A stretch of 64,000 nucleotides of DNA, from contig CAINUM010000063.1 in assembly GCA_903853785.1 (NCBI GenBank), forward strand, positions 2,974 through 66,973, in the 5' to 3' direction. Position numbers and translations under genes: made by a program. Of the stretch, positions 1,472-50,591 are shown piece after piece. Below the pieces are notes generated by a model, which saw only the letters and a program-made list of their open reading frames with translations, did not search any database and was not told the DNA's origin. Positions within the stretch are counted from its first letter, which is position 1; each line of letters opens with the position of its first letter. Source of the DNA: Candidatus Magasanikiibacteriota bacterium. Its GTDB lineage: Bacteria; Patescibacteriota; Patescibacteriia; Magasanikbacterales; GWA2-37-8.

Positions 1472-1472
1472 A

Positions 1473-2177: not shown

Positions 2178-2178
2178 A

Positions 2179-2655: not shown

Positions 2656-2657
2656 AA

Positions 2658-3350: not shown

Positions 3351-3351
3351 A

Positions 3352-4224: not shown

Positions 4225-4230
4225 ATAAAA

Positions 4231-4665: not shown

Positions 4666-4668
4666 AGT

Positions 4669-5220: not shown

Positions 5221-5229
5221 ATTGATACA

Positions 5230-5697: not shown

Positions 5698-5782
5698 AAA
5701 AATATAGGTTAATAAATCATAGTTATTTTAACAAAAATAGCTATTGTTGCCAATAGCTAAAATTTAATGTTGATAACCGATT

Positions 5783-11100: not shown

Positions 11101-11193
11101 AAAAATATTATTTTGCCCTCTTAAGATAATGGATTTTGACTGAATTGTCAATTTTATGGTAAAATTTATGCAGAAATAATTATAAATATTTAT

Positions 11194-11904: not shown

Positions 11905-11933
11905 TTTTTTTAAAATAACCCTGATATCCAGGG

Positions 11934-13013
11934 TTATTTTTTTATATAATTCATTCCACCAACATTTTTAATTGATCCTTTAATTTCCATTAATATTAAA
12001 GTAGAACTAACCACAGAACTATCGAGCTTGCTCTCTAAAATGATCATATTTATATTTTTCGGCTCTTTGGTTAAATATTTTAGAATATTGTTTTCTACTT
12101 CATTATCACCAGTAGATTCAAAGGTCGGAGTTACTTGTTTAACGGTTTGTAAATTCAGTGCTTCCAAAATATCATTTGGTTCGGTTATCATTTTGGCGCC
12201 AAATTTTATAAGATTATTTGGGCCGGATCCAGTGGGGGAGGTCGTCGCATGAGGTACGGCCATAACTTCGCGATTGTAATCAAGAGCACAGCGAGAAGTG
12301 ATGAGTGCTCCGGATTTTATCGGTGCCTCAATAACTAGAGTTCCTAAACTTAATCCGGCTACAATACGATTACGCGCCGGAAAAGAATATTGAGTAGGTA
12401 AAAATCCAGGCGGATATTCAGAAATCAATGCACCGCCATTATATAATATTTTTTCAGATAGTTGTTTATGTGCAGATGGGTAAACACTCTGCCGATCGAT
12501 ACCAGAACCTAACACGGCTAAAGTTATACCGTTGGCCGCTAGTGCGGTATTGTGTGCTACACCGTCAATACCAAGAGCTAGCCCACTGACAATTACCACG
12601 CCTTGGCGAGCGATTGGCATCACCAGGTCTTCACAGATTATTTTACCGTAGGTCGTCATACGTCTTGTACCAACGACCGCGAGAGTCGGCATTTCGGTTG
12701 GTGGTAATGTCCCGCGATAAAAAAGAGTGTGTGGAGGGTCGTTAATTTCAGATAGAAGAACTGGATAATAGTTGTCACCCAAAGAAACTGTTTGAATATT
12801 TTCTTTTATTAAGTTTTCGAGTATTTTTTCGATAGGATTTTTGTCGCGCCAAGTTAAAAATTCAGAGGCAATATTTTCTTCCAAGCCGGCTTTAAGCAGT
12901 TCGTCTAATTCTGTAATATGTAAATTTTGAAAATCAGTAAAATGAATTTTTAAAGCAGTGTAACGTTTGTAAGTAATTTTTGGAAAGTGAGCTAGCCAAG
13001 CGTGATAATTCAT
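11934..13013 (-). CDS. dprA: DNA processing protein DprA (Smf)
   Basis: VVGTRRMTTYG...VIVSGLALGIDGVAH...AVLGSGID is the DprA Rossmann-like core. Confidence 0.85.
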   Translation of the reverse strand: MNYHAWLAHFPKITYKRYTALKIHFTDFQNLHITELDELLKAGLEENIASEFLTWRDKNPIEKILENLIKENIQTVSLGDNYYPVLLSEINDPPHTLFYRGTLPPTEMPTLAVVGTRRMTTYGKIICEDLVMPIARQGVVIVSGLALGIDGVAHNTALAANGITLAVLGSGIDRQSVYPSAHKQLSEKILYNGGALISEYPPGFLPTQYSFPARNRIVAGLSLGTLVIEAPIKSGALITSRCALDYNREVMAVPHATTSPTGSGPNNLIKFGAKMITEPNDILEALNLQTVKQVTPTFESTGDNEVENNILKYLTKEPKNINMIILESKLDSSVVSSTLILMEIKGSIKNVGGMNYIKK

Positions 13014-34877: not shown

Positions 34878-37289
34878 ATGTCAGCAGAAAAATCTGGAGC
34901 CGGATTTGGCTATGAATTATCTGAAGGAGCACAAATTGATTTGAGAGATTTAGGACGTGAAGATGCAAAACCTAGAGAAATGTCTCGTGTTTTTATTTAT
35001 CAATCAAAAGGCACAGATCAGGTTAGGGCAGAATTAATGTCAGGTAAATCCCCAGATCAGATTTCTTTTATTAATCTGATTTTTGCCGAAAAAAATGCCG
35101 ACAGTATTAGTCCAAACCAACTTTTACCAGTTGGTGGTTCTAAACGCCCGGGAGATAAAAATTCTTTAGAGGTTGCCAGAAGACGTATGCTTGAGGAAAC
35201 CCATTTACGCCCAATTAAAATCAAAAAATTGGGGAATATGGATTATAAATTAAATGATCCACGAAAAGAAAAGGCGGAGAAAATTGCAGCCACTTATTAT
35301 TTAGCTGAAGTTTTGCCATTGGATGTTGCGTATTCTCTAAATCCTCATGAAGATAAAATCGCAGGTTATCATCAGATAGATTTGACTACATATCGGGATG
35401 AAATTTTACGACAAGGTTTTTATGTTGCCGATGAAAATTCTGATGGAGAGAGAAAATTGCCAATGATAGATAGTTTGAGAGTGAGATATGAAGTTGGACC
35501 GGAAGATATGACTTCAAATATAGTAGAAGATATATCGGCGCAAAACGTCGCCGAACTCCAGGGTAGGTTAGTGGAAGAATTAGAGAATAAAGATTTTCAA
35601 AAAACTCAAAAAATTCTCTATCACCTGATCTCTTTGATGGATATGGATTCAAATGCTGTAGAGTATTGGATTGATGATGTCGATAAAGCAAAGAACATAT
35701 TGGATTCTACTAAAATTTTAAAGGATTTGTTGAGTTATGCGGCAAATGAAGTTTATAATAATGATGTTACGAAAGTTAGTGAACTTTTTTTGGCAGCCTT
35801 TGATCTGAGCAATTTTGAAGACGAAGTTTCTGAAAAACACGCTGGGAGATCTCACAATGAAATGGTTTTGCGTGTCGTTTTTTCATTACTAGAATCCAAA
35901 TTCAATTATGATAATTATATAGAATTAGTAAAAGCGAATCCAGATTTAGCAGATTTTGGTGAGCGATTAGAAAAATTTATCGGTATTCTTTCCAGTGGTG
36001 GAAACGAAACAGGTAATCGAAAAAAATTAGCATTTCAATTAAAAGGGCTTGACCAAATAGATCCGGAACTTGTTGAAGAGGCTTTTTTTGAGGCGTTTTT
36101 CGATTTTATTCCTAAAGATGCAGATGGAAAAAAACAGTTTGAACGAAGAATTAATAAAACCTTAGCAGCTATTGATAGTTTGTTAGATGAAAAGATTGTT
36201 CGTTCAAAATTGGCTCCAGTAGTTCGTGATCAATATAACGAACGCTTGTTAACTCAGGTGGGTGAAATTCGTAATGCCAAAATTTTTACTTTAATGAAAT
36301 ACGCTTTGCCGGGTGTTGGTTTGGAAGAAAAAAGTCGTTTTAAAGCGGATCAAGATGAGGTGAGTGGTCCGCAAGATAAAAATATGTTGCGCCGTGTTGT
36401 TTTTGAGGCAAGACGTAAATTGGCGATGTTATTTTTATTATTAGAATCAGACGAATATTACGATGAAGTAATAGATTTAGGTTCTCAAGAAATTCAAGCA
36501 TTGTGGAATGATATTTTAGATCCACCCAAAGTAAACTGTTTTCTATCTGAAAAACGTAACGAAAATAATGATCTGTTGGATATAGAGTCTAATTTTGTTA
36601 TGCCAGATAATAGCAGTGCTCAAACGATGGCCGTACGTCCGTTTAAAAATAAACTGGGGGATACTACTATGCTGGTTGGTCAATCGCTGCGAAGAAAAGA
36701 GAGAGAATCGGTTTATCGCAAAATGATTGTTCGTGGGTTTGATCGTCCGGAAGATATTAAGGATATTAATGGTCGCTCACTTGTAATTATGCCATCCAAA
36801 GATCAGCCGTTATCTGAGATTTTAAAAAAAGAAGAACGAGTGTTAGAAATTTGTGATCGTGATAATAATGGAAATTATGTTTGTGAGGATAAAAACTTTG
36901 AAGATCACGTGGCAGTATTTGATATAATTGAAAGTTTGCAGAAAGACAAACATGTAAAAATTTTAGAATACAAGCCAACTAATGAACCGGGAACTTCTTT
37001 TGATAGTAATGGAGCTGGCGGTGAAGGTCAGATTAGGTTAGCAAAATTTTATATTCAACATACTGATAATAATGGAAACGTTAGGACTGAAGAGGTTCAA
37101 ATTTTTACCCCTTCTGCAGATGGACGCAGTGGTTTTTATTGGGAAAAGAAAAAGAAAGAGGACGATGAAAGTTATGAATTTGATCGTCTGTTGCGTACCA
37201 AAGGGGTGCATTCATTTGTGGAGATTCTTTATCCAGCAAAAATATTTGGTAAACCAATTCAAAATGTAAATAAGAAAAAACGATCGTAA
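34878..37289 (+). CDS. multidomain protein: N-terminal Nudix hydrolase domain, large alpha-helical middle region, C-terminal RelA/SpoT-type (p)ppGpp-synthetase-like nucleotidyltransferase domain
   Basis: Nudix box GGSKRPGDKNSLEVARRRMLEETHL (GG-x5-G/E-x7-REuxEE) at aa 86-110. At the C-terminus, RRKERESVYRKM matches the Rel G-loop GRPKHIYSIYRKM, DIKDINGRSLVIM matches EIYDLLAVRILV, and EEVQIFT matches EVQIRT. Confidence 0.55.
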   Translation: MSAEKSGAGFGYELSEGAQIDLRDLGREDAKPREMSRVFIYQSKGTDQVRAELMSGKSPDQISFINLIFAEKNADSISPNQLLPVGGSKRPGDKNSLEVARRRMLEETHLRPIKIKKLGNMDYKLNDPRKEKAEKIAATYYLAEVLPLDVAYSLNPHEDKIAGYHQIDLTTYRDEILRQGFYVADENSDGERKLPMIDSLRVRYEVGPEDMTSNIVEDISAQNVAELQGRLVEELENKDFQKTQKILYHLISLMDMDSNAVEYWIDDVDKAKNILDSTKILKDLLSYAANEVYNNDVTKVSELFLAAFDLSNFEDEVSEKHAGRSHNEMVLRVVFSLLESKFNYDNYIELVKANPDLADFGERLEKFIGILSSGGNETGNRKKLAFQLKGLDQIDPELVEEAFFEAFFDFIPKDADGKKQFERRINKTLAAIDSLLDEKIVRSKLAPVVRDQYNERLLTQVGEIRNAKIFTLMKYALPGVGLEEKSRFKADQDEVSGPQDKNMLRRVVFEARRKLAMLFLLLESDEYYDEVIDLGSQEIQALWNDILDPPKVNCFLSEKRNENNDLLDIESNFVMPDNSSAQTMAVRPFKNKLGDTTMLVGQSLRRKERESVYRKMIVRGFDRPEDIKDINGRSLVIMPSKDQPLSEILKKEERVLEICDRDNNGNYVCEDKNFEDHVAVFDIIESLQKDKHVKILEYKPTNEPGTSFDSNGAGGEGQIRLAKFYIQHTDNNGNVRTEEVQIFTPSADGRSGFYWEKKKKEDDESYEFDRLLRTKGVHSFVEILYPAKIFGKPIQNVNKKKRS

Positions 37290-37301
37290 GATCGTTTTTT
37301 T
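37275..37301. terminator. bidirectional terminator between the Nudix-SAS gene and radA
   Basis: AAAAAACGATC-GTAA-GATCGTTTTTTT. The stop codon of the plus-strand gene lies in the loop. Confidence 0.6.
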
Positions 37302-37309
37302 GTTTAGTA

Positions 37310-38659
37310 TTATTTTTGAATTATTTTTTCAACTACTTCTTGAACGTTTTTTATCGGCGCTGTTTTTAGTCCGGTTATCTTAGGAATTTTTGATGATAGG
37401 GGAATCACAGCAATTTCTAATCCTAAATTTTTTATTTCCGTTAATCTTTTTTCTGTATGATTCACAGGACGCACTTCGCCGCTGAGTCCAACCTCTCCAA
37501 AAGCGGCAAGGCCTGGAGGAAGTGTTTTGTCTTTTAGCCCAGAAGCGATTGCGAGAATGACTGCTAAGTCTGCTGCCGGTTCATCAACGGTTAAGCCACC
37601 AACTACATTTAGAAATACATCATAAGACTCAAGAGGTAATCCAGCTCGACGCGATAAGACACCGATCAAAACCTGTAATCTGTTTAAATCGAATCCTGAA
37701 GCTCGGCGTTGAGGAAATCCAAAATTTGTTTTCGTCACTAAGGCTTGAATTTCAATAAGCATAGGGCGAGTGCCTTCCATGATTGCTGTAATAACGGTAC
37801 CTGGTACTGGTTCGTTTCTTTCTGAGATCATCGCAGCCGAAGGATTTTTAACTTCCACTAGTCCATCTTTTTCCATGGTAAATACACCAACTTCGTCGGT
37901 TGGACCAAAACGATTTTTGGCGGCACGTAAAATTCTAAAATCGTGAAAGCGGTCTCCCTCAAGATAAAGAACGGTATCTACCAGATGCTCCAAGGTTTTA
38001 GGACCGGCAACAGCGCCATCCTTGGTAACTTGTCCAACTAAAATAAATGTTATATTATTTTTTTTCGCAGCCTCAAGTAATTTTACTGTGCATGCTCGCA
38101 CCTGTGAAATATTTCCAGCTTCACCAGCCACTTCATCAGAATAAACTGTTTGGATTGAATCAATAATTGCTAATTTGCATTTTGTCGTCAGGCTAGTTGC
38201 AATAATAGTTTCGATATTGGTTGCACTTGCAAGTTCGAGAGTGGGGGATGAAATATTTAGTCGTAAAGCTCTCATTTTGATTTGTTGGGTAGATTCTTCT
38301 CCAGAAAAATATATAGTTTCTGGAATGATATTAGCTAATTGCAAAGCGAGGGTAGATTTACCCACACCAGGTTCACCGCCAAGCAATATTAGACTACCCG
38401 GAACTATTCCACCACCAAGCACACGATCGAGTTCAGAAATATTTGATTGGAATCGTTTAAAATTTTGGCTACTAATGTCTTTTAATTTTTCAGTTTTAAT
38501 TGGTAAATAATTTTTGGACAGGTCTTCTTTTTCTTTTCCTATAGGTGCGTTTACTTGTTCAACAGTACCCCATTTTCCACATTCCAAACATCGCCCAGTC
38601 CATTTCTGGAATTGGGCGCCACAGTGGGAGCAAGTAAAAATTATTTGATTGTTTTTCAT
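37310..38659 (-). CDS. radA: DNA repair protein RadA/Sms
   Basis: N-terminal C4 zinc finger (CSHCGAQF...CLECGKW), RecA-like GGEPGVGKSTL and a Lon-like C-terminal domain. Confidence 0.9.
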   Translation of the reverse strand: MKNNQIIFTCSHCGAQFQKWTGRCLECGKWGTVEQVNAPIGKEKEDLSKNYLPIKTEKLKDISSQNFKRFQSNISELDRVLGGGIVPGSLILLGGEPGVGKSTLALQLANIIPETIYFSGEESTQQIKMRALRLNISSPTLELASATNIETIIATSLTTKCKLAIIDSIQTVYSDEVAGEAGNISQVRACTVKLLEAAKKNNITFILVGQVTKDGAVAGPKTLEHLVDTVLYLEGDRFHDFRILRAAKNRFGPTDEVGVFTMEKDGLVEVKNPSAAMISERNEPVPGTVITAIMEGTRPMLIEIQALVTKTNFGFPQRRASGFDLNRLQVLIGVLSRRAGLPLESYDVFLNVVGGLTVDEPAADLAVILAIASGLKDKTLPPGLAAFGEVGLSGEVRPVNHTEKRLTEIKNLGLEIAVIPLSSKIPKITGLKTAPIKNVQEVVEKIIQK

Positions 38660-38668
38660 GGTCAGTAT

Positions 38669-40276
38669 TTAATGAATTGGGCAGCGAGCTGCGCCTGCAG
38701 CCGGAGGTATGCATGGTGAAAGTCCGGTATAACCTGTTATACGACAATATGCGCCAGCTTTTTGTGATTCAAAATGCCAATTTTCTGCACCATATCTCAC
38801 AAAACCGGCACTGTACATAATACTTGAAAGGGCAGCTACTCCTTGGGCGTTTGCTTTGCATTGGTTTTTGCCACTAAACCCGCCATCAGAAATTTCACTA
38901 CCACCTTTCGTTAAGACCAAGTCGAGTGCATAGCCAGTACCATGAGGAGAATTACCTGGTTTGGCAACAGTACCAGAACTTACTCCACCAGGCTGAGCTT
39001 TTGCTATTTTTTGTTGAGAGGCAATACTACGACATTTTGATCGAACACCAATTACATATCCTTGTGCTGCAGCTTTTTTTCCAGCATCTATAAGTTTATC
39101 GGCTGTAATTTTTGCAACAAAATTTTCTCTTGGATCACCTTCTTTTCTAACAGACAAACCTGCACATTTGTCACCTTTACAAAGCGCCACTAAATCAACC
39201 CAACCTTCTGGTGGTGATGCAGTGTTAATTTTATCGCAAGCACCTTTTTCACCAACCGTAGGACCTCCAGCCATACCCGCTTCCATATCGGAAGTGTCGA
39301 TATCATCTGGAATTGGCAGTGGTTCAATGTATTGTACTTTTAAGGCACTAAAATTAACTAAGTCAGGATTGATAGTATATAAAATAGAATATGATCCCCA
39401 AGCGATAGACAATCCTATTAATACTTTCCCAATTTTTTTGAGACCTTCAACTCGTTCAGCTCCACCCAAAACGGTTATTTTTACACCAACTACAATTATC
39501 ATTATTACCCCGATAATGCTGATTGCTACCATTGATATTTTATAAATCGCAGACATATATTCACCGATATAAGGAAGATGAAGATATCCTTGCTCATCAA
39601 TACTGTTGGCTATATCAGTAAAAGTTAATTGCGGAATGTTTATTTCCAATTTCGGTGGTTTGATTTCCAATTTTTTTTCAACAGTAGCAATTGGTGGGGC
39701 TACTGTCGGCGCCACATCTTCTACTGCAGCCGTAGTTTTTGTTCCAGCCTCTCCAGGTAGGCCGACTGACGGACTTAGGGCGTCATTGAGTTTTGAAGCT
39801 TCTGGTTCGCAAAGAGGCAAGCTTGCAAATTGAGGAGTATCGGCGGCACTCTTGGCTACTAAACATTCATATGTGCCATCCGGTCTTTTTGAGACGTAGT
39901 ATGGCTGGGAAAAAGCCTTTGGAACCCCTTTGTCCGGAAAGATATTGTCACCGGAATCATTGTGGCAATATTTCAGGTCTGTTCCATCTTTATTATCATT
40001 CCAGCAATACCAGCTTCCGGTGAATGGGGGGTTGGAACCATATTTTGTTAAACAATCACCGTCGTTATTGCAGGTACAATACATAGGATTTCCAGGCAGT
40101 GAACTTTTTTCACAATCTAAGCTTGCCCCACCAATCTGACAATCATTATTTGATATATTCTGAGTACACTTGTCACCGATTGCACTAGTGGCAGCATTAA
40201 CAAGTGTTATATTTATAAAAAATAAAAATAGAGCAACTGTTATTAATATAAATTTAGTTTTAATATATTTATTCAT
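38669..40276 (-). CDS. secreted/membrane-anchored peptidase M15 (VanY/endolysin-type) with Cys-rich ectodomain and 2-TM hairpin module
   Basis: Signal peptide, a Cys-rich roughly 150-aa region, two TM helices (SIIGVIMIIVVGVKI...VLIGLSIAWGSYSILYTINPDLVNF) and a C-terminal SPHGTGYALDL ... ENWHFE (M15 His/Asp zinc ligands). Confidence 0.65.
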   Translation of the reverse strand: MNKYIKTKFILITVALFLFFINITLVNAATSAIGDKCTQNISNNDCQIGGASLDCEKSSLPGNPMYCTCNNDGDCLTKYGSNPPFTGSWYCWNDNKDGTDLKYCHNDSGDNIFPDKGVPKAFSQPYYVSKRPDGTYECLVAKSAADTPQFASLPLCEPEASKLNDALSPSVGLPGEAGTKTTAAVEDVAPTVAPPIATVEKKLEIKPPKLEINIPQLTFTDIANSIDEQGYLHLPYIGEYMSAIYKISMVAISIIGVIMIIVVGVKITVLGGAERVEGLKKIGKVLIGLSIAWGSYSILYTINPDLVNFSALKVQYIEPLPIPDDIDTSDMEAGMAGGPTVGEKGACDKINTASPPEGWVDLVALCKGDKCAGLSVRKEGDPRENFVAKITADKLIDAGKKAAAQGYVIGVRSKCRSIASQQKIAKAQPGGVSSGTVAKPGNSPHGTGYALDLVLTKGGSEISDGGFSGKNQCKANAQGVAALSSIMYSAGFVRYGAENWHFESQKAGAYCRITGYTGLSPCIPPAAGAARCPIH

Positions 40277-40808
40277 AAACTTCTAATTCACCATACATGG
40301 TGTTGTGACCATCACCACAATACCAGTTACAAAAAAAAGTATAATTACCAGTTCTGTCAGGGACAAATTTTATGGTAGTGGTTTGTCCAGGTTCAAGTAA
40401 TACTTGTGAAAAGCCAAATTTATCTAATGAAAATGTGTGTTTGCTATCGGAGGTATTTTTGAGATTAATTATTATTAAGTTATCTTTTTTAACTTTAATT
40501 TTTGATGGCTTATATTCCCAATTTATAATTTCCATTTCTATTTTTTGTTTGTTTTCAGTTGTATACTTTGATTCATCATAATTGTTGTTTGAAGACACCA
40601 AATTCATTTCTGTAGACCCTTCTCCATCAGGAAGACCTAATTCACCAGGTATTGAATCCGAAAGATCAGTTTGTTCATTCATTTGTGTTTTTATATGTTT
40701 TTCTATAGCTCTATGTTTACCAACTTTAAAGTCAAATAATAGAATAAATATCGACATTATTATTATAAAAATCAAAATTGGTGTGATAATCTTCATTTCT
40801 TTGATCAT
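40269..40808 (-). CDS. membrane-anchored cupredoxin with CuA-type binuclear copper motif (COX2/NosZ-like domain)
   Basis: N-terminal TM helix. H-x35-CNWYCGDGHNTM matches H...C-x3-C-x3-H-x2-M. No COX1-like gene is adjacent. Confidence 0.55.
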   Translation of the reverse strand: MIKEMKIITPILIFIIIMSIFILLFDFKVGKHRAIEKHIKTQMNEQTDLSDSIPGELGLPDGEGSTEMNLVSSNNNYDESKYTTENKQKIEMEIINWEYKPSKIKVKKDNLIIINLKNTSDSKHTFSLDKFGFSQVLLEPGQTTTIKFVPDRTGNYTFFCNWYCGDGHNTMYGELEVYE

Positions 40809-40817
40809 AATTTAATT

Positions 40818-43154
40818 TTATGGGCGACCATCACATCGCATTTCTTTGCATACTCCCCAATATTCAAAATGCATACCGTCAGTTCTAAAGGCTTTAGTAT
40901 TACAAAAATCACCGCCCCAAACAAATCCATTTTTCTTAAAAATATCGATCCATTTTTTTGGATGAGTAGTAAATGGATTTGAACCGTCAGCAAATCTACT
41001 ATTTAAGCAATCGTTGAGACCCTTTTCTATTCTTTCTGCTAAACCGGCGTATTTTTTGAATTCGTCTTTTTGTTTTTCATAGTTTTCCTTATATTGATTG
41101 CACCACGTAATCGCTGATCCGGTGTTTTTACTACCATCGTATTTAAAATCTTGATTACTGCCATAAATCAAATCTACGGCCATTGCCGCCTGGTGCATGT
41201 CTTTAGTTACAGAGTCATTTACTTCGCAAGTTGCTTTTTTTCTTGCATATCCAAATCCGCAATGTTCACCGGCTAAACCTTCGCTAATCCCTGATGATGC
41301 ACGATCGTGTGGTTTTTTAGGATAGGTATGAAGAGATGGCGAATCTTTGCCAGTACCTTGAAAAAATTTTACATAGTCTTTCATTTCAGGTTCTGGACTT
41401 TCTAAAATTTCTTTTTCTACTTGTTTAAATGCAGCAACTGCTTTTGGATTGATTTTAAATTTTGCCCCAAGAAAAGTTATAGCTACTGATGGCGGTTGAA
41501 CCCCTACATGTAAGTCGTATGCACCCATTAAGCATTTTGCCGACGGACCAACTTTTGGGTATAATTCCAAGCCCTTTGAATCATATTGACCGTTATAAGT
41601 AGCGTTGTCGGCACCCTCATAACCCGTACCTTCAGAACTACTCGGAATCTCTTCGCGGGCAATGTACCGAATTTTTAAAGCATTAAAATTTACCAGATCT
41701 GGATTGATAGTATATAAAATAGAATAGGAACCCCAGCCGATAAAAAGGCCAATAATTACTTGGCCAATTTTTTGAAAACCATGAATACGTTCTTCACCTC
41801 CAATAGTTGTTATTTTTACACCTTGAATAATGATCATTATTACGGCGATGATACTCATTGCTACTAAGGCTACTTTGTAAGCTGCCGATAAATATTCGCC
41901 AATATAAGGTACAGTCAAATAACTGACACCGTTTATTTCTACGAGACTGTTTTGAACATCAGAAAACTGAAGCTGTGGAATGTTGATAGCCAAATCCGGT
42001 TTGTATGTTTTAATTTCTTGCACAACACCTGGGGTTCCGCTTCCACCCGCTCCTGCACCACTGCTGCCATCTGGTTGTATTGATGTACAAGTAGCATTCA
42101 CGGCCTCCATCTCACCGTCATGTTGCGATTTTGCAGTTTGTGATGTAACAGTAGCAGGATAATTTTTTGTTTGTGGTGCAAAAGTTTTAGATGAATCATC
42201 ATAAATATACATCGTCACTGTTATCTTTCCGTTACTGCCTACATCTACCCAGGCAAAGGAGTCAGCCACATCTGAAGAAGTTTGGCCTTTAGTGTATTCC
42301 ATCATTTGTTTTCCCATCGTTCCACTGTTGATGTACTCTAAACCATCACATGTACCATGATAGTTGGCATGCGTGTGCCCAGCAAAAAGAGCTTTGGCAT
42401 TTTTGGATATTAATTTTTGTGTAAGTTGAGAAAAATCTTGAACCTCGCCATTTTTTCCAGGGTCATTACTTTTTCCTAATACACTACTTCCACAAACCGA
42501 TCCATCTTTTGCACAAGACAATCCATAGGGAGTAACATGTCGAAAAACAAGATCTCCAGCGACCATGTTTGAATCCAGACAGTCCAGTTCTTGTTGTGAT
42601 AGCCAATAGTGGTGTCCATCAAAATATGGATCGATCAAAACAAAACCTTGCCCCTTGTAAGAGAAAGAAGAAAAACGATAAGGAGAATTCGGTCCGCAAG
42701 TTGTTCTCGTTTTATATGGGTCAAATAATTTAGCAGATTGATTTCCCCAAAATGTGTACCACGGGGAATGGCCATTTAAAAAATCATGATTTCCAGCCAC
42801 TGGAACAACGGGAATTTCTAATTTTGATAAAAAAGCTTTATTAAATTCTGTGTACTGTGCTGCTGATCCTTTATAGGCTAAGTCACCCAATAAAACTACA
42901 AAATCTGGCTTTTTTTCATTAATAAATGGAACTACATTTATAAGTGCTTCACCCTGGACGTCAGTATTTAGTTCTGGTGTATCCGAAATTACTGCGAAAC
43001 TAAAAGATATACCGTTTGCTCCAGCTTCAGCTTTTTGCGATGCAGCATCGGCAGGCCCAGATAGTTGTTCATCAGTCATTGCTATAGCCGACAGTGGGGC
43101 TAATAAGGTACCAACCAACAAAACCAAAGCAATAATTTTTTTGGATACGTACAT
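40818..43154 (-). CDS. secreted calcineurin-like metallophosphoesterase fused to 2-TM hairpin module and C-terminal peptidase M15 domain
   Basis: Signal peptide. GDLAY, GNHDF and GHTHANYH phosphoesterase motifs. The TM module is roughly 65% identical to that of the 38669 protein. C-terminal HQAAMAVDL ... DGMHFEYWG is the M15 signature. Confidence 0.65.
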   Translation of the reverse strand: MYVSKKIIALVLLVGTLLAPLSAIAMTDEQLSGPADAASQKAEAGANGISFSFAVISDTPELNTDVQGEALINVVPFINEKKPDFVVLLGDLAYKGSAAQYTEFNKAFLSKLEIPVVPVAGNHDFLNGHSPWYTFWGNQSAKLFDPYKTRTTCGPNSPYRFSSFSYKGQGFVLIDPYFDGHHYWLSQQELDCLDSNMVAGDLVFRHVTPYGLSCAKDGSVCGSSVLGKSNDPGKNGEVQDFSQLTQKLISKNAKALFAGHTHANYHGTCDGLEYINSGTMGKQMMEYTKGQTSSDVADSFAWVDVGSNGKITVTMYIYDDSSKTFAPQTKNYPATVTSQTAKSQHDGEMEAVNATCTSIQPDGSSGAGAGGSGTPGVVQEIKTYKPDLAINIPQLQFSDVQNSLVEINGVSYLTVPYIGEYLSAAYKVALVAMSIIAVIMIIIQGVKITTIGGEERIHGFQKIGQVIIGLFIGWGSYSILYTINPDLVNFNALKIRYIAREEIPSSSEGTGYEGADNATYNGQYDSKGLELYPKVGPSAKCLMGAYDLHVGVQPPSVAITFLGAKFKINPKAVAAFKQVEKEILESPEPEMKDYVKFFQGTGKDSPSLHTYPKKPHDRASSGISEGLAGEHCGFGYARKKATCEVNDSVTKDMHQAAMAVDLIYGSNQDFKYDGSKNTGSAITWCNQYKENYEKQKDEFKKYAGLAERIEKGLNDCLNSRFADGSNPFTTHPKKWIDIFKKNGFVWGGDFCNTKAFRTDGMHFEYWGVCKEMRCDGRP

Positions 43155-43156
43155 AT

Positions 43157-43813
43157 TTATTTAGCAATAAATTTTGTCAGCATTTCTATTATATCAATAT
43201 CATTTTCCAAATTTATTTTTTTATTATTAGCATAAATTGTTGGCACTTGGGTTACATTGAGGGAAGTAGCCAGGTCAGTAGTACGTGCAATTTTTTGTTT
43301 GGCTTCTTCAGAATTTACACACTGCCACCAAGTTACTGTATTTATTTTTAAATCATTAGCAATTTTAGTTAGATCAGATTCGCTAGAAATATTTTTTTCA
43401 TTATTTAAAACGTCAACATATTGCCAGTATTTATTTTGTTTGCCAGCACAAAATGCACTACGGTGCGGCATATCATTAATTTTATAAAATAAATTTTTTT
43501 GTGGAATTTCTTTTAAATACATTCGTACATCTTGTGGGTGTTCACTAACAAATTTACTTATTTTATTATATTGTATTTTACAAGTTGGGCAATTAAAATC
43601 GATAAACAATACGATTGTGAGTGGGGCACCTGGGTTGCCCAGTATTTGATCATCGTTTTCTGTCGCGATATCGAAATAACCCGCACTCAACAATGGGGTA
43701 TCGCTTTGTTTGACTGTAATTTTTTGAGTATTTAGTAGTTGAACAGTAAAAATTCCACCAGCTGTAATTACCGCTACTATTAATAATATATAAAATTTAT
43801 TAATTGGGTGCAT
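43157..43813 (-). CDS. membrane-anchored DsbA/BdbD-like thiol:disulfide oxidoreductase
   Basis: N-terminal TM and CPTC active site in a thioredoxin fold. Confidence 0.75.
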   Translation of the reverse strand: MHPINKFYILLIVAVITAGGIFTVQLLNTQKITVKQSDTPLLSAGYFDIATENDDQILGNPGAPLTIVLFIDFNCPTCKIQYNKISKFVSEHPQDVRMYLKEIPQKNLFYKINDMPHRSAFCAGKQNKYWQYVDVLNNEKNISSESDLTKIANDLKINTVTWWQCVNSEEAKQKIARTTDLATSLNVTQVPTIYANNKKINLENDIDIIEMLTKFIAK

Positions 43814-43824
43814 ATTGGTGGTAA

Positions 43825-45060
43825 TTATAATTTAATTTGGAAAACACCACTTTGAGTAGCATCTGTGAAGAAAACTTTATTTTTTGTTTGATCAAAATTT
43901 ATACTCTTGATATTGTAGTCTCCACCTAAAGAGATGTTGGTTTTTAAGCCAGTTTTTAAATCAATTTTATACATGTCATCTTTGTTGTCGGCGGCTACTT
44001 CAGGGAGAATTCCTGCGCCTTGTGGTAGATCGCGGGGTACTGCACAGAATAGAGTCGTATCACCAGCGAAGGCACATTTGTCAGCCCAAGTATTTAATTT
44101 AAGCATTTGTCGATTGCCACCAATGTTATCTCCATAAGAATCGGTGATCCAAAGTTCAGGCTTAAAATCACTACGTGTACTATAGACGCTATATAAAAGT
44201 TTTTGGCCAGTTGGTGACCACTGTGGTTGAAAGCCCAAACCTTCCACAACTGCAGATTTGAAATTTTCTCCATGTAGTCCTACAAACAACACCTCGCGTC
44301 TTTCACCACCGAGCGGTTCGCCGGTTTGTGAGAAAGCCACAGTCTGACGGTTTGGGGACCAATCAATCTGTACTTTATCTGAATTTTCGCCCATTGGTTC
44401 GACTAGAGTGGTTCCACTACCGTCATCATTTACTGTTACCAGCCAGCGATTTTCTGGAGATAGGCCAATACTTTTTGCGGCGAGTTGGGTGCTATCTGGT
44501 GAAAAAGAAAACTGCTCCCAATGTTTCGGTAAAGTTACCTGTTTTTGTTTTTCAAAATCATAAATTGTTTTGGATCCATCTGGATATTCTAACACAGCTT
44601 TGTCGTTGTTGTTTGCCCAGGTTACATTACTAACATTATAAAATGTTTGATCAGACAAAGATCTCATTTGTCCATCACTGGCTAGTCGATAAAATTTTCC
44701 ATCCCCTTGGTTGTAGTATCGGATGTTACCGGCTTGACTATATCCAGCAAAATCTACTTGATCAGAAGTTAATTTTGTTACTGGTGCAGTTTGATAATAA
44801 CCACCAGGTGTTACCTGTGGAATCGCAGGTAAAGTTGTCTGAACTCCACGACCTAGTTGACCAGTGCCGGTTCCGCCGGTTGCTGCGGTGGAAGTTCTTT
44901 CTCCGGCACCCGGTAATTGTCCGGCCGGTTCAGATGGAACTTCAACAGGCGCCTGCACAATTGTCGCTCTTTTGAAAAGTGCATATAAACCGAAACCTAT
45001 TAGTATAGTTGCAACCAACAGTGCGATTATTAAAAGTATACGTTTTAGTGCAGGGTTCAT
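43825..45060 (-). CDS. membrane-anchored beta-propeller protein (TolB/PD40-like repeats)
   Basis: N-terminal TM. Repeated FSPDSTQLA / WSPNRQTVAF / WSPTGQKLLY PD40-like blades. Confidence 0.6.
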   Translation of the reverse strand: MNPALKRILLIIALLVATILIGFGLYALFKRATIVQAPVEVPSEPAGQLPGAGERTSTAATGGTGTGQLGRGVQTTLPAIPQVTPGGYYQTAPVTKLTSDQVDFAGYSQAGNIRYYNQGDGKFYRLASDGQMRSLSDQTFYNVSNVTWANNNDKAVLEYPDGSKTIYDFEKQKQVTLPKHWEQFSFSPDSTQLAAKSIGLSPENRWLVTVNDDGSGTTLVEPMGENSDKVQIDWSPNRQTVAFSQTGEPLGGERREVLFVGLHGENFKSAVVEGLGFQPQWSPTGQKLLYSVYSTRSDFKPELWITDSYGDNIGGNRQMLKLNTWADKCAFAGDTTLFCAVPRDLPQGAGILPEVAADNKDDMYKIDLKTGLKTNISLGGDYNIKSINFDQTKNKVFFTDATQSGVFQIKL

Positions 45061-45086
45061 ATGTTTATTTTATTTATTTTGAAGTG

Positions 45087-46628
45087 TTAGTTTGTCGGGG
45101 CTGGAGGAGGAGGAGGAGGTGGTGGTGGTGGTGGTGGTGGTGGTGGTGGTGGTGTGTCTGGTTTGGTCTCCGGATTTTTGTTTGCCTGATTATTTTTATG
45201 AGTGTTGTTCGCGTCTTCTTTGCGTTCAGACTTGGAGGCACGAAGGAGGTTGTTTGTGGCCACAATTCTTTTTCTGATTTTAACTTTTTTATTTAATCGA
45301 TCCAATATTTCTGTGATTTTTTCAATCATTGGATTGATGTCGTCTTTAATTATAGTCTTTAATGCTCTAGTTGTTTTACCGGATCCCGTAGCACCTTTAA
45401 AAATAAAAATTGGTAAGGCAATAATAGGTGAAAGAATAATTATGATAATACCTATTATTATTTCTACTAACGGAACACCAACTCTAACAACACTAACAAC
45501 GGCCTCAATATAATCTGCAATAATGATTAAAGCATTAAGCATAGTTTTGACCAAACGAAGAACTGCTAAATTGGCCTCAAGCATCTTTATTTTTGCGTCA
45601 TCTTTGGCATTTGCTTTACCAAATGTAAGTGATGTGATTTTATCGTATAGAGGACGAGCAAAAGTTTTTAAAATTCTCATTGCCCAACTACCTTTCATTC
45701 CATCAACTTTGCTATCGAGAGCGGCTAATTCAGAGTATAGTTTTTTTTGTTCTGCTCGCAACTTCTTTTTTCTACTGCGATCACTTTGCAAACTGTTTGC
45801 AATATTAGCAACCATTTTCCTGGGTGCGTCCTTGATATTTTGTGCACCTTTTTGGATTTTATTAGCCGCCCCATTTGCGATTTTTGAGCCCAAATTTTTG
45901 GCTCTGGATTTGAGACTGGAAGCTTTGTTTGATTGGTCTTTTGGCGCTACTGTTTTAGGGGTTTTGTTCGAGGTTGCGTGTGGGCCAGTTTTGGCTAGCT
46001 CTTCACTGTTTGGTTTAGAAAGTTTCTTATTAGCATTGGGATTCATGTCTGATCGCCAAGGCTTTGTGTCGTTCATCTTGTCTGCATTTGCCGATTTTTT
46101 TTGTGGTTCTTTTGAATCTGGCTGAGTTTCGTTTTTTTTATCAGAAGTTGTTTTTTCTGCGGAAGAATCAGTATTATTAGGTGGTGTATTGCGATTTGGT
46201 GTATTTTCTGAAGCTGGAGGTTGTTGATTTTGTGTTGGATTAGTCTCGGAATTATTTTGTGATTCAGTTGCAGGCGGTTGTGGTTCTGGAGATTTTTCTG
46301 GTGATTGTTGTTCTTTTACTGGAGCGGCGTTCTGATCATTTGGGTTTTTGGACGGCGTGCTGTTGGTCGAAGTTTGATTCTGATTTGATTCATTAAAATT
46401 TTCCGGAGCGGAAGTGCTACTTTGTGGCCTATTTTTAGTTGGTTCGTTTTTTATTTCTGCATTGTCGTTGGCAACCTTTTTAGTGTCGCCCAATTCGAAT
46501 TCTACCGATTTACCTCCACTTCGAATTTTTGCATTTTTAACACCAGACATTCCTGTAATTACAACATCGTCATTGGCAGCTTCAGGGCCACTAGTTGTAG
46601 GTTTTTGTTGTCTGGCGGGCAAAGCCAT
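45087..46628 (-). CDS. low-complexity S/T/N/Q/P-rich single-pass membrane protein ending in a poly-proline tract
   Basis: Long disordered N-terminus, one TM near aa 390-420 and C-terminal P19 encoded by the (GGT)n/(GGA)n repeat. Confidence 0.5.
   Translation of the reverse strand: MALPARQQKPTTSGPEAANDDVVITGMSGVKNAKIRSGGKSVEFELGDTKKVANDNAEIKNEPTKNRPQSSTSAPENFNESNQNQTSTNSTPSKNPNDQNAAPVKEQQSPEKSPEPQPPATESQNNSETNPTQNQQPPASENTPNRNTPPNNTDSSAEKTTSDKKNETQPDSKEPQKKSANADKMNDTKPWRSDMNPNANKKLSKPNSEELAKTGPHATSNKTPKTVAPKDQSNKASSLKSRAKNLGSKIANGAANKIQKGAQNIKDAPRKMVANIANSLQSDRSRKKKLRAEQKKLYSELAALDSKVDGMKGSWAMRILKTFARPLYDKITSLTFGKANAKDDAKIKMLEANLAVLRLVKTMLNALIIIADYIEAVVSVVRVGVPLVEIIIGIIIIILSPIIALPIFIFKGATGSGKTTRALKTIIKDDINPMIEKITEILDRLNKKVKIRKRIVATNNLLRASKSERKEDANNTHKNNQANKNPETKPDTPPPPPPPPPPPPPPPPPAPTN
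45103..45153. repeat. trinucleotide microsatellite (GGA)5(GGT)12 encoding poly-Pro on the minus strand
   Basis: Directly visible at ctggaggaggaggaggaggtggtggtggtggtggtggtggtggtggtggtggtg. Confidence 0.9.
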
Positions 46629-46633
46629 AAAGT

Positions 46634-49150
46634 TTATTTAACAAGCAATTTTTTATCGGCGATATCTAAAGTGTATTGTTTTTTATTGTTCTTTTTTAAT
46701 ATTACTTCGGCCATTAATTTTTCAATAGCGGTTCGTAATTGACGTCGGATTGTTCGTGCGTTTGCATTTGTGGTCGGTAGGGAAGAGATGTAAGCAGATA
46801 AGATTTTTTCTTTGGCATCAAGCTTCGTGTGATATTGTGATAGGCGTTCATTAAATTTAACAATTTCTAATCCGGCAATTTTGGCCAAGTCCAAAGTGGT
46901 CAAAGTGTTGAATAGACAAATTTTATCCAAACGATTGATCAGTTCAGGAGAGAAAAATTCTTTTAATTTTTCGTTAATTTTTTTATCGTAAATTTCACTT
47001 TGAGATGCTGTTCCACCAAAGCCAAAATCGGCACGGTTGGCATCTTGAGCACCAAGTGAAGTTGTCAGTATTATTATAGCATGTTTTAAAGAAATTTTCT
47101 TCCCCGTCGAGTCGGTGATTTCCCCATTTTCTAAAATTTGTAATAATAATTTGGTCACATCCTTGTGGGCCTTGTCGATTTCGTCGAACAACACCACACA
47201 ATGAGGATTATTTTTTATTTTATCGGTAAAATTATTTCCTTCTTTGTAACCAACATAACCAGCTGGTGAACCTAGTAGTTTAGAAACACCAAAACTTTCG
47301 TTAAACTCACTCATATCTAATTTGATGAGCGAATCTTTGCTTGGATAAAGAGTATCGGCGATAGTTTTGGCTAATTCAGTTTTTCCTACGCCACTTTGGC
47401 CCACGAACATGAATGAAGCCAAAGGTCTATCTGGGTGGTTTAATCCCAAACGAGCCCGATTGATGATTTCGGATACTTCACGAATCACAACATCTTGGCC
47501 GATTACCAAAGTTTTTAGTTTGTCCTCCAAGTCGATCAGTTCATTTTTTTCCTCCATGATTAATTCACTTGGTTTTGAGCCAGTAATTTTTGCAATTTGC
47601 ACTAACACGTCATGATCATTAATTTCATCTTGAAAATCTGTCTTATTTTCTTTGGCAATTTTATTTTCTTGATCTATTTCTATACGTAATTTTTCCTCTT
47701 GAATTTTTAGTTTAACCGCCTCGTTGAATTTATCCGAAAGCGCCGCTGCTTCTTTAGCAGAAATTGTTTTTTCTAATTTTTGTTTTAAACGTTCAACTTT
47801 TCCAACCCAGGAATTGTTTTTGGAATTAATTCTTTTAGCTGCGGCTGTTTCGTCCAACAAGTCGATCGCTTTATCTGGCAAAAATTTATTTGTAATATAG
47901 CGTTGCGAAAGGCGAACGGCCGCTTCTATAGCAGACTTGTTGATTTTTACACTATGAAAAATCTCATAATTTATTTTAATACCTTCAAGAATTTTGACAG
48001 AATCTTCCGCTGACGGTTCTTTTACAAAAATAGGTTGAAAGCGGCGTTCTAGTGCAGAATCGCTCTCAATATGTTTTTTAAATTCGTTTAAAGTAGTTGA
48101 TCCGATACAACGTATTTGGCCACGTGCTAAAGCAGGTTTTAGAATGTTCGCAGCGTCCATTGTGCCTTGATTACTACCTGCGCCGACGATATTATGAAGT
48201 TCGTCTATAAACAAAATAATATTTGGATTGGCGGCGACATCGTCAATCACTTGGTGTAAACGTCCTTCAAATTCACCGCGGTAAATGGTGCCGGCAATCA
48301 AAAGACCCATATCCAAAGCGTAGATTTTTTTGTTCAACAAAATATCTGGTACTTTATTTTGTAAAATACGTTTTGCTAAACCCTCGATGATGGCAGTTTT
48401 GCCGACCCCAGGATCACCTAATAGTACAGGATTATTTTTGGTGCGACGACAAAGAATCTGAATTAGGCGTTCGATTTCATTTTCTCGTCCAATGATAGGA
48501 TCAATATTTTTTTGTAACTCTGGATTAGTTAGGTTAGTAGCAAAAAAATCTAAAGCCAATTCTTTTTTACCTGGTTTTTTATTTGTTTTTGCAATCGGAT
48601 GGTTGTGTGGTGTATCGTTGTTATCGGAACCAAACATATTGTCTTGAATTTTTTCAACCGCTTCCATCACTTCATTAATTTGTGGAAATTGTGAGGCGTT
48701 GGTGAGTACGGTTTCTAATTGTTTTATTATTTCAGTTAGAGCGACATTATTGTTTTTTAAAGCCAGGTTGATTGTTGGGTTATTTAATTCAATAATTCCT
48801 TTTAATAAATGTTCCGTGCCAATATAGTTATGAGTATGGTCTTGGGCAATAACTAAAGATTTTTCCATAGCTGCTTTGGAATCTTCAGACATTGGTGACA
48901 TCTGTAGGTCGGTAGTGTTAGCTGTTTTTTTTCTAGCGACTGTTGGTAATCCTAAAATCATTTTTTCAACACTTTTTAAATCAATTTTTAGGCGATTTAA
49001 AATTTCCGAAGCGACGGATCCTTTTTGGTTCTGTAAAATAAAAAACAGGTGGATTGGTTCCACTTCTTTATTTTCAAGTTTTGTGGCTAATTGTATGCTT
49101 TTACTAAGGACATCTTTGAAGTGGGTGGAGAATCTTTCTAATATAGACAT
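46634..49150 (-). CDS. clpC: AAA+ chaperone ClpC/ClpB family
   Basis: Two Clp_N repeats, NBD1 [10 protein letters not shown], a coiled-coil middle region, NBD2 [12 protein letters not shown] and a C-terminal small domain. Confidence 0.9.
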
Positions 49151-49229
49151 AATACAGTTATATTGCTTTAAGAATAGGGATATTATATAATGAAAGAATG
49201 TAATTTACAAGCTAAAAAAAGATAAAAAT

Positions 49230-50591
49230 ATGTTTCCAAAACAGGTGTTTAAAGCTTATGATATTCGCGGTTTGGTTGAAGGGGAGCTCAGCGATGATTT
49301 GGCGTATCGAATTGGACGAGCTTACGGAGTTTTTTTGCACGGAAAATATTCTGATTTTGATGGTAAAAGCATAGTAGTTGGCTATGATATGCGCCAGACT
49401 AGCCCCCAATTCTCCAAAGAAGTTATTAGGGGTCTAAATGACGAAGGTTTGGACGTGGTAGATATTGGGTTGGCTACGACGCCATTATTCAATTTTGCAT
49501 GCTCAAATTATAGCGAATATGTGGCAGGAATAATGGTTACCGCTTCGCACAACCCGGCTAAATACAATGGGTTTAAAATGACGTTGGGTGATGGTACTCC
49601 AGTAGGTAGAGGCGGTGGAATGGAAGAGATTCGTGATTTAGCTGAAAAAAATGATTTTAAAAATTCGCTAGCGAAGGGGTCAATCAAAAATAGAGAAATA
49701 TTAGAAGATTATTTATCAAAGATTTTTTCTATTGTAAAATCTGAGACAATAAAACCACTTAAAATAGTAGTTGATGCGGGTAATGGTATGGCAAAAGTGT
49801 CGTTTGTCGAGGTCCTAAAACGATTGCCAGTTCAAGTGGAATATATGTATTTGGAGCCAGACGGAACTTTTCCCAATCATGAAGCCAATCCATTAAATGT
49901 TGAAACTTTACAGGCGCTACAAAAACGAGTAGTAGAAGTTGGAGCAGATTTTGGTTTTGCTTTGGATGGTGATGCTGATCGAGTGGGGTTAGTGGATGAA
50001 AAAGGTGATGTGGTAGAAGCGTCATTTGTTGGGGCTTTGATGGGTCTTGAAGTTTTACGCTCCAATCCTGGTGTTTACATGTTGTATGATCTAAGAAGTA
50101 GTAAGATTGTGAGAGATGTGTGGGAGCAAAATGGCGCACGTACCGGCATGTGTCCTGTTGGACATGCTCTAATAAAAAAGATGATGAAAGAAGTCGGTGC
50201 ATTTTTTGCCAGCGAGCTTTCTTTGCATTTGTATTATAATGATATGCACGATGTAGAGTCGACTGATTTAGCACTGCTATATTTTTTGAGTTTGGTTTCT
50301 CGTAGTGGTAAAAAGTTGAGTGAATTAACCGCTCCATTAAATAAATATTTCCACTCTGGAGAGATCAATTTCCATGTGGAAGAAAAGGATAAAATATTGG
50401 CTAATTTAAGAGAAAAATATGTCGACGGAAAATCGGTTGAACTTGATGGTTTTTATGTTGAATACCCAACATGGTGGTTCAATGTTCGTTCTAGCAATAC
50501 AGAACCAGTATTGCGTCTGAATTTGGAATCAAATACTAAATCTGAGATGGAAGAAAAGTTGGCCGAGGTGAAAAAAATTATTGAAGGATAA
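49230..50591 (+). CDS. phosphomannomutase/phosphoglucomutase (alpha-D-phosphohexomutase)
   Basis: TASHNPAKYNGFK active-site Ser loop, DGDADR metal-binding loop, 453 aa. Confidence 0.85.
   Translation: MFPKQVFKAYDIRGLVEGELSDDLAYRIGRAYGVFLHGKYSDFDGKSIVVGYDMRQTSPQFSKEVIRGLNDEGLDVVDIGLATTPLFNFACSNYSEYVAGIMVTASHNPAKYNGFKMTLGDGTPVGRGGGMEEIRDLAEKNDFKNSLAKGSIKNREILEDYLSKIFSIVKSETIKPLKIVVDAGNGMAKVSFVEVLKRLPVQVEYMYLEPDGTFPNHEANPLNVETLQALQKRVVEVGADFGFALDGDADRVGLVDEKGDVVEASFVGALMGLEVLRSNPGVYMLYDLRSSKIVRDVWEQNGARTGMCPVGHALIKKMMKEVGAFFASELSLHLYYNDMHDVESTDLALLYFLSLVSRSGKKLSELTAPLNKYFHSGEINFHVEEKDKILANLREKYVDGKSVELDGFYVEYPTWWFNVRSSNTEPVLRLNLESNTKSEMEEKLAEVKKIIEG

Follow-up and report, generated by a model that had tools for sequence, protein, structure and literature searches.

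The window analysed here, a stretch of 64,000 nucleotides of contig CAINUM010000063.1 (positions 2,974 to 66,973 of the forward strand; GenBank assembly GCA_903853785.1, Candidatus Magasanikiibacteriota), contains six genes, together covering 8 kb, between clpC, the gene of an Hsp100 unfoldase, and radA, the gene of a DNA recombination helicase. On balance, the evidence somewhat favours the reading that these six genes are a surface module associated with a type IV secretion system (T4SS), lodged inside an ancestral clpC-radA pair in Magasanikbacteria/ABY1 and probably co-transcribed with both genes. The constant part of the module would be formed by a membrane protein, here called X, a membrane-anchored propeller and a BdbD/DsbA-like oxidoreductase. 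The variable part would be a slot for zero to three proteins, in which a VirB2-like hairpin holds two Cys-rich, swappable enzyme ectodomains outside the membrane.

All eight open reading frames (ORFs) lie on the minus strand, at the positions where a first-pass annotation made from the sequence of the window had placed clpC, six envelope genes and radA (37310-49150), and the gene identities proposed there are borne out by Pfam, NCBIfam and PDB searches. The features of the locus, in window coordinates, are the following:

49182..49210, minus strand: sigma-70-type promoter, TTGTAA-17-TATAAT, in the 79-nt divergent intergenic region before clpC
46634..49150, minus strand: clpC, 838 aa; Clp_N, two AAA+ modules, a short middle domain and FGF at the ClpP-loop position
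45087..46628, minus strand: gene X, 513-aa membrane protein
43825..45060, minus strand: PD40-type propeller, 411 aa; seven-bladed, membrane-anchored, extracytoplasmic
43157..43813, minus strand: DsbA/BdbD-like oxidoreductase, 218 aa; membrane-anchored
40818..43154, minus strand: cassette protein 1, 778 aa; signal peptide, metallophosphoesterase, hairpin module, M15_4 peptidase
40269..40808, minus strand: predicted CuA-type cupredoxin, 179 aa; membrane-anchored
38669..40276, minus strand: cassette protein 2, 535 aa; signal peptide, Cys-rich N-domain, hairpin module, VanY/LAS M15 peptidase
37310..38659, minus strand: radA/sms, 449 aa; canonical
37274..37301, both strands: bidirectional intrinsic terminator between radA and the convergent 803-aa gene
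34878-37289, plus strand: 803-aa gene, convergent to radA, between radA and recG; weak NUDIX and HopA1 matches only

The 5' neighbour of clpC is a divergent phosphomannomutase (PMM) gene. On its 3' side, radA is followed by the terminator and then by the convergent 803-aa gene.

Proteins of the module and of the flanking genes

The 69 slot proteins compared have one element in common, a module of some 110 residues that comprises two long hydrophobic helices and the motif INPxLVxF, and the nearly invariant columns of the cassette protein alignment are all inside this hairpin module. The Pfam family PF18895 (T4SS_pilin) is matched by 40 of the 69 at E < 0.01, with a best E of 1e-7. With the hairpin alone as query, small pilins of the candidate phyla radiation (CPR), one of them named ‘pilin’ by NCBI, are found at E of about 1e-4 in 5.8 billion sequences; this search gave eight candidates and four matches, which name the domain and are too few for a census. 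The cassette proteins have the N-terminal hydrophobic segment and the two-helix hairpin of VirB2/TrbC-like pilins (PF18895, PF04956). They are not small stand-alone pilin subunits of about 100-160 aa, however, since in the window the hairpin sits inside 535- and 778-aa proteins with folded domains on both sides. In the AlphaFold2 model of cassette protein 2, the two helices span residues 235-269 and 273-302, joined by a three-residue turn, with a predicted local distance difference test score (pLDDT) of about 80-89, and the C-terminal domain is modelled with confidence.

The domains of the two cassette proteins in the window are arranged as follows:

42300-43001, minus strand: cassette protein 1, aa 52-285, metallophosphoesterase (Metallophos, 52 bits against 21.5)
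41640-42029, minus strand: cassette protein 1, aa 376-505, hairpin module
40860-41198, minus strand: cassette protein 1, aa 653-765, M15_4 peptidase (Peptidase_M15_4, 27.8-30.5 bits; motifs DMHQAAMAVD and GMHFE)
39287-39694, minus strand: cassette protein 2, aa 195-330, hairpin module
38753-39151, minus strand: cassette protein 2, aa 376-508, VanY/LAS M15 peptidase (VanY, 26.8 bits)

These had first been described as two M15 surface proteins. The M15 domains hold, and what that description overlooked is the metallophosphoesterase of the 778-aa protein and the VirB2-like hairpins of both. In cassette protein 2, SPHGTGYALD and WHFE align to Ply500 (2vo9), and Foldseek places the domain with VanX, LdcB, VanY and phage endolysins at probability 1.0. 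The H-x6-D motif, the downstream His and the fold match identify M15/LAS zinc peptidases. The metallophosphoesterase of cassette protein 1 has the metal-ligand motifs GDLAY, GNHD and GHTH, a pattern which resembles that of purple acid phosphatases. Around the hairpin, VanY/M15, SLT, Amidase_2, C39-like (C39_2), M23, CHAP, GDSL lipase and Metallophos domains are swapped from protein to protein.

Because the cassette proteins start with a signal-type segment, both domains flanking the hairpin should face outward. They are also rich in Cys, with a median content of 2.7% vs 0.4-0.7% in the cytoplasmic neighbours. Cassette protein 1 has 14 Cys residues and cassette protein 2 has 18, and the count is even in 46 of 67 cassette proteins. 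Given this Cys content, the adjacent DsbA-like protein would have an obvious job.

The DsbA-like protein scores 59 bits against Thioredoxin_4 (threshold 23.2) and 47 bits against DSBA (threshold 25.6), and its PDB matches include 3gyk (E 2e-10) and B. subtilis BdbD (3eu3, E 6e-7). A CPTC active site, a VPT cis-Pro loop and an N-terminal anchor can be read from its sequence. With a thioredoxin fold, a CxxC motif, a cis-Pro loop and an extracytoplasmic location, it belongs to the DsbA/BdbD type. In B. subtilis, BdbD acts with BdbC and is a DsbA-like oxidoreductase needed for the folding of competence proteins. The two proteins are alike in that a membrane-anchored DsbA fold with CxxC is encoded beside genes of Cys-rich exported proteins, in a context of DNA transactions; the similarity to BdbD is only distant, however, and the substrates here are a matter of deduction. 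A partner of the DsbB, BdbC or VKOR type was not noticed among the window proteins scanned, in a genome that is incomplete and for which no dedicated search was made.

The propeller is the best conserved of the inserted genes, with 57-81% identity, which is comparable to that of RadA and ClpC, and its family comprises 217 clusters at 50% identity, about 100 of which are covered by the comparison of contexts. Its AlphaFold2 model (pLDDT 83) consists of an N-terminal anchor, a disordered linker and a seven-bladed propeller only. The Pfam match is PD40, and the nearest structures are the propellers of S9 peptidases and other generic propellers. An assignment as a TolB orthologue was rejected, as the protein scores 21 bits against TIGR02800 (cutoff 343 bits) and the TolB N-domain is absent. 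It differs from both TolB and the S9-peptidase PD40 propellers in that there is no TolB N-domain, Pal, outer membrane or peptidase domain here.

Gene X encodes a cytoplasm-facing membrane protein. It has no signal peptide and consists of a disordered N-terminus of about 280 aa rich in P, S, T, N, Q and K, a coiled coil, a hydrophobic hairpin at about aa 356-412 and a charged C-terminal tail. Seventy-seven loci have a protein of this build at the position of X, with very little conservation of sequence; a Pfam scan of 69 X homologues gave no common family, and the X hidden Markov model (HMM) found no homologue in the distant loci described below. A Zot/P-loop match in X was set aside as spurious, since its Walker-A-like motif, GATGSGKT, is missing from all 77 positional homologues and is followed by too little sequence for an NTPase domain. 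Nor is X a further pilin-hairpin protein, as hhalign finds no relation. The C-terminal tails of X are poorly conserved overall; in the window the tail (45087-45150) ends in an unbroken run of about 19 prolines.

The cupredoxin scores 56 bits against Cupredoxin_1 (threshold 27), and the NosZ C-terminal and CoxB models match too. Judged from its residues, the ligand motif is a complete one of CuA type, H-x35-C-x3-C-x3-H-x2-M, and the protein can be taken as a CuA-type cupredoxin. The lineage is thought to have no respiratory chain, and a stand-alone CuA cupredoxin is notable there. Among all the loci examined, the only homologue found is in the fragment L003, where it lies directly 5' of radA. 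The 1-kb stretch over the gene (40000-40999) has the lowest G+C content of the cluster, 0.31. The cupredoxin is a local addition to the cassette slot and may have been acquired recently.

The two genes that bracket the module are orthologues of clpC and radA. In Pfam terms, the ClpC sequence contains Clp_N, AAA, AAA_lid_9, AAA_2 and ClpB_D2-small, and its top PDB match is B. subtilis ClpC/MecB (3j3s, E 1e-176), to which it aligns in a single stretch, whereas ClpB aligns in two. The solved ClpC of S. aureus and ClpC1 of M. tuberculosis are also among its closest relatives and likewise align without a break. With Clp_N, two AAA+ modules, a short middle domain and an FGF at aa 709-711, which follows a TTSLGA motif at what was judged by eye to be the position of the ClpP-docking x-G-F loop, the protein is a ClpC-type Hsp100. 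RadA scores 537 bits against TIGR00416 (cutoff 403), and its C4 zinc finger, Walker A motif GEPGVGKS, KNRFG motif and Lon-like C-domain identify it as RadA/Sms.

Conservation of the locus and its link with type IV secretion

Related loci, referred to by L numbers, were collected in two ways, by scanning species-representative genomes with RadA and metagenomes with the propeller, which together gave about 95 Patescibacteria loci. The RadA proteins nearest to that of the window, 92% identical, come from metagenome-assembled genomes (MAGs) of Candidatus Magasanikbacteria/Magasanikiibacteriota (Patescibacteria). In every locus long enough to be judged, the order is PMM on the opposite strand, clpC, X, propeller, DsbA, zero to three hairpin proteins and radA. 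In the relatives, radA is followed by an optional 803-aa gene and then by recG on the opposite strand. Homologues of the 803-aa gene occur at this position in some relatives only (L009, L013, L031, L048, L069, L083 and L101). The order is retained down to 45% identity of the propeller, 55% of RadA and 44% of ClpC, and DsbA comes after the propeller in almost all close loci. Several of the MAG records with a locus of Magasanikbacteria type (L003, L005, L006, L010, L011, L021 and L031; RadA 62-91% identical to that of the window) are titled ‘uncultured Gammaproteobacteria bacterium’, and these titles look like mislabels or placeholders.

The comparison of clpC-radA neighbourhoods that had been proposed as a check thus finds the insert in the same place in about 90 relatives and no clade member in which clpC and radA are adjacent. 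The insert is therefore not peculiar to this genome, as its first description could suggest, since the layout is lineage-wide. In three outgroup loci found in the RadA-based scan, two from Chloroflexota (L015 and L016) and one from Lachnospiraceae (L019), clpC adjoins radA, which fits an insertion into the pair. It is a reasonable reading that an ancestral clpC-radA pair was split by the insert in an event that is old and lineage-wide.

The 38 complete related loci have three (3 loci), four (17), five (16) or six (2) genes between clpC and radA, so that the window, with six, stands at the upper end of the range. The slot between DsbA and radA varies in the number and type of its proteins even between genomes whose RadA proteins are 90-94% identical. 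A different filling of the slot is seen in L108 (12069-20891), where two giant Cys-rich proteins of 1624 and 1260 aa, with 98 and 92 Cys residues, follow DsbA. The larger one, which was scanned, has LVIVD repeats and DUF4215. Both lack the second, central hydrophobic segment by which hairpin proteins are recognized, and no radA follows within the locus.

The link with type IV secretion comes, apart from the hairpin itself, from distant relatives. Ten contexts of propeller homologues 34-38% identical to that of the window were inspected. L118 and L119 both show PrgI, TraC-like and VirB4 genes, then three genes of which the last encodes a hairpin protein, then propeller and DsbA; L113 shows TraC-like and VirB4 genes, a further four genes, propeller, a hairpin-SLT/C39 protein and radA, with recG convergent. 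VirB4 is thus located four to five genes 5' of the propeller in all three, and PrgI is confined to the first two loci. The hairpin HMM matches proteins of the distant loci at E 1e-19 to 1e-31 (1e-20 to 1e-23 for those of L113, L118 and L119). Among the other contexts, L115/L116 and L123 have the clpC-X-propeller form, L117 and L121 have the propeller directly after clpC, L122 has radA directly after the propeller, and L114 has LemA, HtpX, propeller, hairpin proteins and radA. Since the propeller is found in VirB4 clusters, with clpC only and with radA only, it appears to be the hub of the arrangement. Small genes annotated as ‘23S rRNA intervening sequence protein’ (PF05635) lie in or beside the module in L114 (1008-2834) and L119 (2258-2650 and 11349-11720); in L119 one of them separates the propeller from DsbA.

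The T4SS loci of Patescibacteria are similar in several respects (Quinonero-Coronel et al. 2025, PMC12102498; Wang et al. 2023, to the extent that it is cited there). They contain divergent VirB2-like pilin-domain proteins in small arrays, with peptidoglycan hydrolases alongside, and those of class ABY1 commonly include comF, recG and radA, the last two co-localized there as they are here (PMC12102498). They differ in that no VirB4, PrgI/VirB3 or VirB6 was found among the window proteins scanned, and in that the pilin domain here sits in the middle of enzymes of 375-900 aa rather than in a protein of about 150 aa. The text of PMC12102498 mentions no propeller, Dsb, X or Clp protein, and its supplements contain no PD40, TolB, DSBA or Clp. 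The VirB1 analogues of monoderm conjugation systems, with SLT and CHAP domains (PMC12102498), are peptidoglycan hydrolases of several domains that are likewise tethered to the membrane and linked with a T4SS locus. Their anchor, however, is an N-terminal helix, whereas the one here is a central two-helix hairpin, and the domains here are M15 peptidases and a phosphoesterase, in a set that varies between relatives.

Under the T4SS-associated reading, the DsbA-like protein would oxidize and fold the Cys-rich ectodomains, which in the window are a phosphoesterase and an M15 peptidase in one protein and a Cys-rich domain and an M15 peptidase in the other, with the CuA cupredoxin added between the two proteins. 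The hairpin would anchor these ectodomains at a T4SS or pilus, or feed them to it, and the enzymes would cut peptidoglycan, either that of the cell's own wall, letting the apparatus through, or that of the host. RadA, with the neighbouring recG, would handle DNA moved by the apparatus. The first-pass annotation had spoken of envelope remodelling; a surface role for the six genes stands, and in view of the VirB4-cluster contexts an accessory module of a secretion system fits better than that generic function.

Several observations weigh against this reading. VirB4, VirB3/PrgI and VirB6 were not found by Pfam among the 50 window proteins scanned, nor was any T4SS core gene among ten unlabelled proteins sampled within 10 kb on either side of related loci, so that the module in the window is physically apart from any T4SS core. 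The sample of distant contexts is small, ten in all, and its taxonomy putative. The two hairpins of the window score 16.4 and 11 bits against T4SS_pilin, below the Pfam threshold of 26.6 (E 0.0094, also sub-threshold, for cassette protein 1). The flanking LemA, HtpX, PMM and recG genes are as syntenic as the module, and conservation of gene order may come from low rearrangement rather than function. The site is found without clpC in L043, L045, L071, L079 and L114, and without radA in L085, L108 and L117. Finally, L006 and L008 keep X, the propeller and DsbA without any cassette protein, so that the constant part can do without the hydrolases.

Some of these points would be expected if the propeller, DsbA and hydrolases were instead the cell's own autolysin and wall-turnover machinery, whose place between clpC and radA would be neutral, left over from an old insertion in a genome with few rearrangements. 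The locus does lie in the core chromosome amid housekeeping genes, with flanks equally syntenic, no T4SS core among the Pfam-scanned window proteins and no hydrolases at the site in L006 and L008, and M15, amidase and SLT domains are ordinary autolysin types. Such housekeeping maintenance of the wall is nevertheless rather unlikely: enzyme heads that differ between relatives as close as those compared above are unusual for housekeeping autolysins, the anchor is a hairpin of the T4SS pilin family, the propeller and a hairpin protein lie within VirB4 clusters in three of the distant loci (with DsbA in two), and lipase and phosphoesterase heads do not act on peptidoglycan.

The exchange of heads recalls polymorphic effector and toxin families, in which a conserved module is combined, at a fixed locus, with exchangeable amidase, muramidase, peptidase, lipase and phosphoesterase domains. 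Here, however, the enzymes lie to either side of the module, there is no sign of immunity genes, and the proteins stay embedded in the membrane. The cassette proteins might on this analogy be surface attack enzymes independent of any machine, which digest the host envelope on contact for nutrients and use the hairpin as a recycled anchor. Their swapped peptidoglycan-, lipid- and phosphoester-cleaving heads on a conserved module have the architecture of polymorphic effectors, a role in breaching host envelopes has been proposed for lytic transglycosylases and phospholipases of Patescibacteria (PMC11665869), and no T4SS core was found nearby in the window. Against this, small immunity-like genes were not found after the cassette genes, the module adjoins VirB4 clusters in the distant relatives, and both ends of each protein are tethered to the producer's membrane, which limits their reach; the idea is accordingly considered improbable.

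Transcription and regulation of the locus

The eight genes are likely to be co-transcribed from one promoter to one terminator, to judge from the positions of predicted signals. A TTGTAA-17-TATAAT promoter heads the list of eight sigma-70-like matches (10 of 12 positions) in 36800-49400 and is the sole intergenic one; it occupies the only intergenic space 5' of clpC. The terminator directly after radA has a stem of 11-12 bp with A and T runs at its sides and is detected on both strands. Between clpC and radA there is no intergenic room for internal promoters or terminators. In the related loci, a TTGACx/TTGTAA-17-TATAAT promoter is present 5' of clpC in nearly all cases, the median junction gaps are 2-30 nt in the 38 complete loci, and promoter-like or terminator-like signals are rare at internal junctions, with the exception of a strong hairpin before radA in L046. 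The reading of the eight genes as one unit, which had been proposed from their short spacing, is thus upheld on other grounds.

The gaps in the window measure 5, 26, 11, 2, 9, -8 (an overlap) and 9 nt. The first-pass values of 26, 11, 9, overlap and 9 are correct, and its 6 and 3 are not. As evidence for an operon, however, these gaps were discounted: 35 of the 54 same-strand gaps in the compact window (65%) are 26 nt or less, and equally short gaps are therefore weak evidence. The weight for a single unit rests on the positions of promoter and terminator and on the conservation of the locus across relatives, not on the gaps. Shine-Dalgarno motifs are absent 5' of all eight genes, and an Rfam scan of the window found one tRNA and nothing else.

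A further element was noted in the clpC leaders. An AAGCAA motif, A-rich and then GCAA, follows the -10 box of the clpC promoter at a distance of about 15-20 nt, in the window (49151-49181) and in the clpC leaders of L001-L108. It is kept across loci whose ClpC proteins are only 45-60% identical, and could mark the transcription start region or be a leader or operator element.

The arrangement of clpC adjoining radA is known from B. subtilis (PMC8957991). The locus resembles the Firmicutes operon in that the clpC and radA orthologues are on the same strand of one apparent transcription unit with clpC first. It differs in that radA directly follows clpC there, whereas six genes (8 kb) intervene here, and in that ctsR, mcsA, mcsB, disA and the CtsR operator are all lacking and the promoter is a plain sigma-70 one. 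In the ORFs of the window, ctsR, mcsA and mcsB were not found upstream of clpC, nor disA downstream of radA. The CtsR box (GGTCAAANANGGTCAAA), which had been expected upstream of clpC, has three matches in the window at three mismatches, none of them 5' of clpC, with 3.9 expected by chance. The Firmicutes-type frame in which the genes were first placed does not apply directly to this uncultured, ultra-small bacterium, a Candidatus Magasanikbacteria MAG (Patescibacteria/CPR), and the coupling to a ClpC stress regulon is not supported.

It is consequently quite improbable that the surface cassette is part of a stress operon of ClpC/CtsR type, in which envelope remodelling and DNA repair would be co-induced by proteotoxic stress. 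Such a regulon would account for clpC as the leading gene, preceded by the sole good promoter, and for the HtpX, LemA and RseP genes close by. In addition to the missing CtsR components, however, the clpC promoter is of a near-consensus housekeeping type that leaves no space for a known operator, and several lineages retain the module without clpC.

Significance and other genes of the window

Patescibacteria, which live on other cells, account for a large part of bacterial diversity. Their T4SS, whose role is unknown, proved essential in the single species in which this was examined (PMC11665869; PMC12857230), and it is a candidate route for the import of DNA or nucleotides (PMC11665869). The locus supplies candidate parts, a conserved propeller with DsbA and a pilin-hairpin family with interchangeable wall-, lipid- and phosphoester-cleaving domains, which the whole lineage keeps locked in what looks like a single unit with the genes of a DNA recombination helicase and of an unfoldase and which lead to testable predictions on the acquisition of DNA and nutrients. 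It is also a clear case of an old clpC-radA pair of Terrabacteria split by a lineage-specific module. The Firmicutes clpC-radA operon, the VirB2-like pilin arrays of Patescibacteria and the proximity of T4SS, radA and recG in ABY1 were already known. The bracket of clpC and radA around a module, the propeller-DsbA pair as a recurrent T4SS neighbour and the pilin hairpin within polymorphic hydrolases are apparently undescribed in the literature searched.

A more far-reaching and doubtful proposal is that the propeller, clpC, radA/recG, DsbA, the pilin-hairpin enzymes and the VirB4 linkage all belong to one machine, a monoderm, T4SS-derived apparatus for the import of DNA (or nucleotides). Hairpin-anchored hydrolases would open the walls of host and self, with the propeller and DsbA assembling them. 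X would recruit ClpC through its long disordered cytoplasmic arm, ClpC would extract or recycle hairpin subunits, and RadA and RecG would process the incoming DNA. If this is true, the essential and functionally unexplained T4SS of Patescibacteria would gain a concrete role and new parts.

Elsewhere in the window, dprA, the transformation gene of DNA-processing protein A, is located near topA (9046-13013, minus strand), so that it shares the window with radA and recG. Ten tightly packed genes at 716-6717 (minus strand) form a deoxynucleotide salvage and thymidylate cluster, which is notable in an organism expected to rely on imported nucleotides. Their products include thymidylate kinase, DHFR, GNAT, ThyA, dUTPase, a nucleoside/nucleotide kinase, dCMP deaminase, a nucleoside deoxyribosyltransferase-like protein and a CYTH protein.

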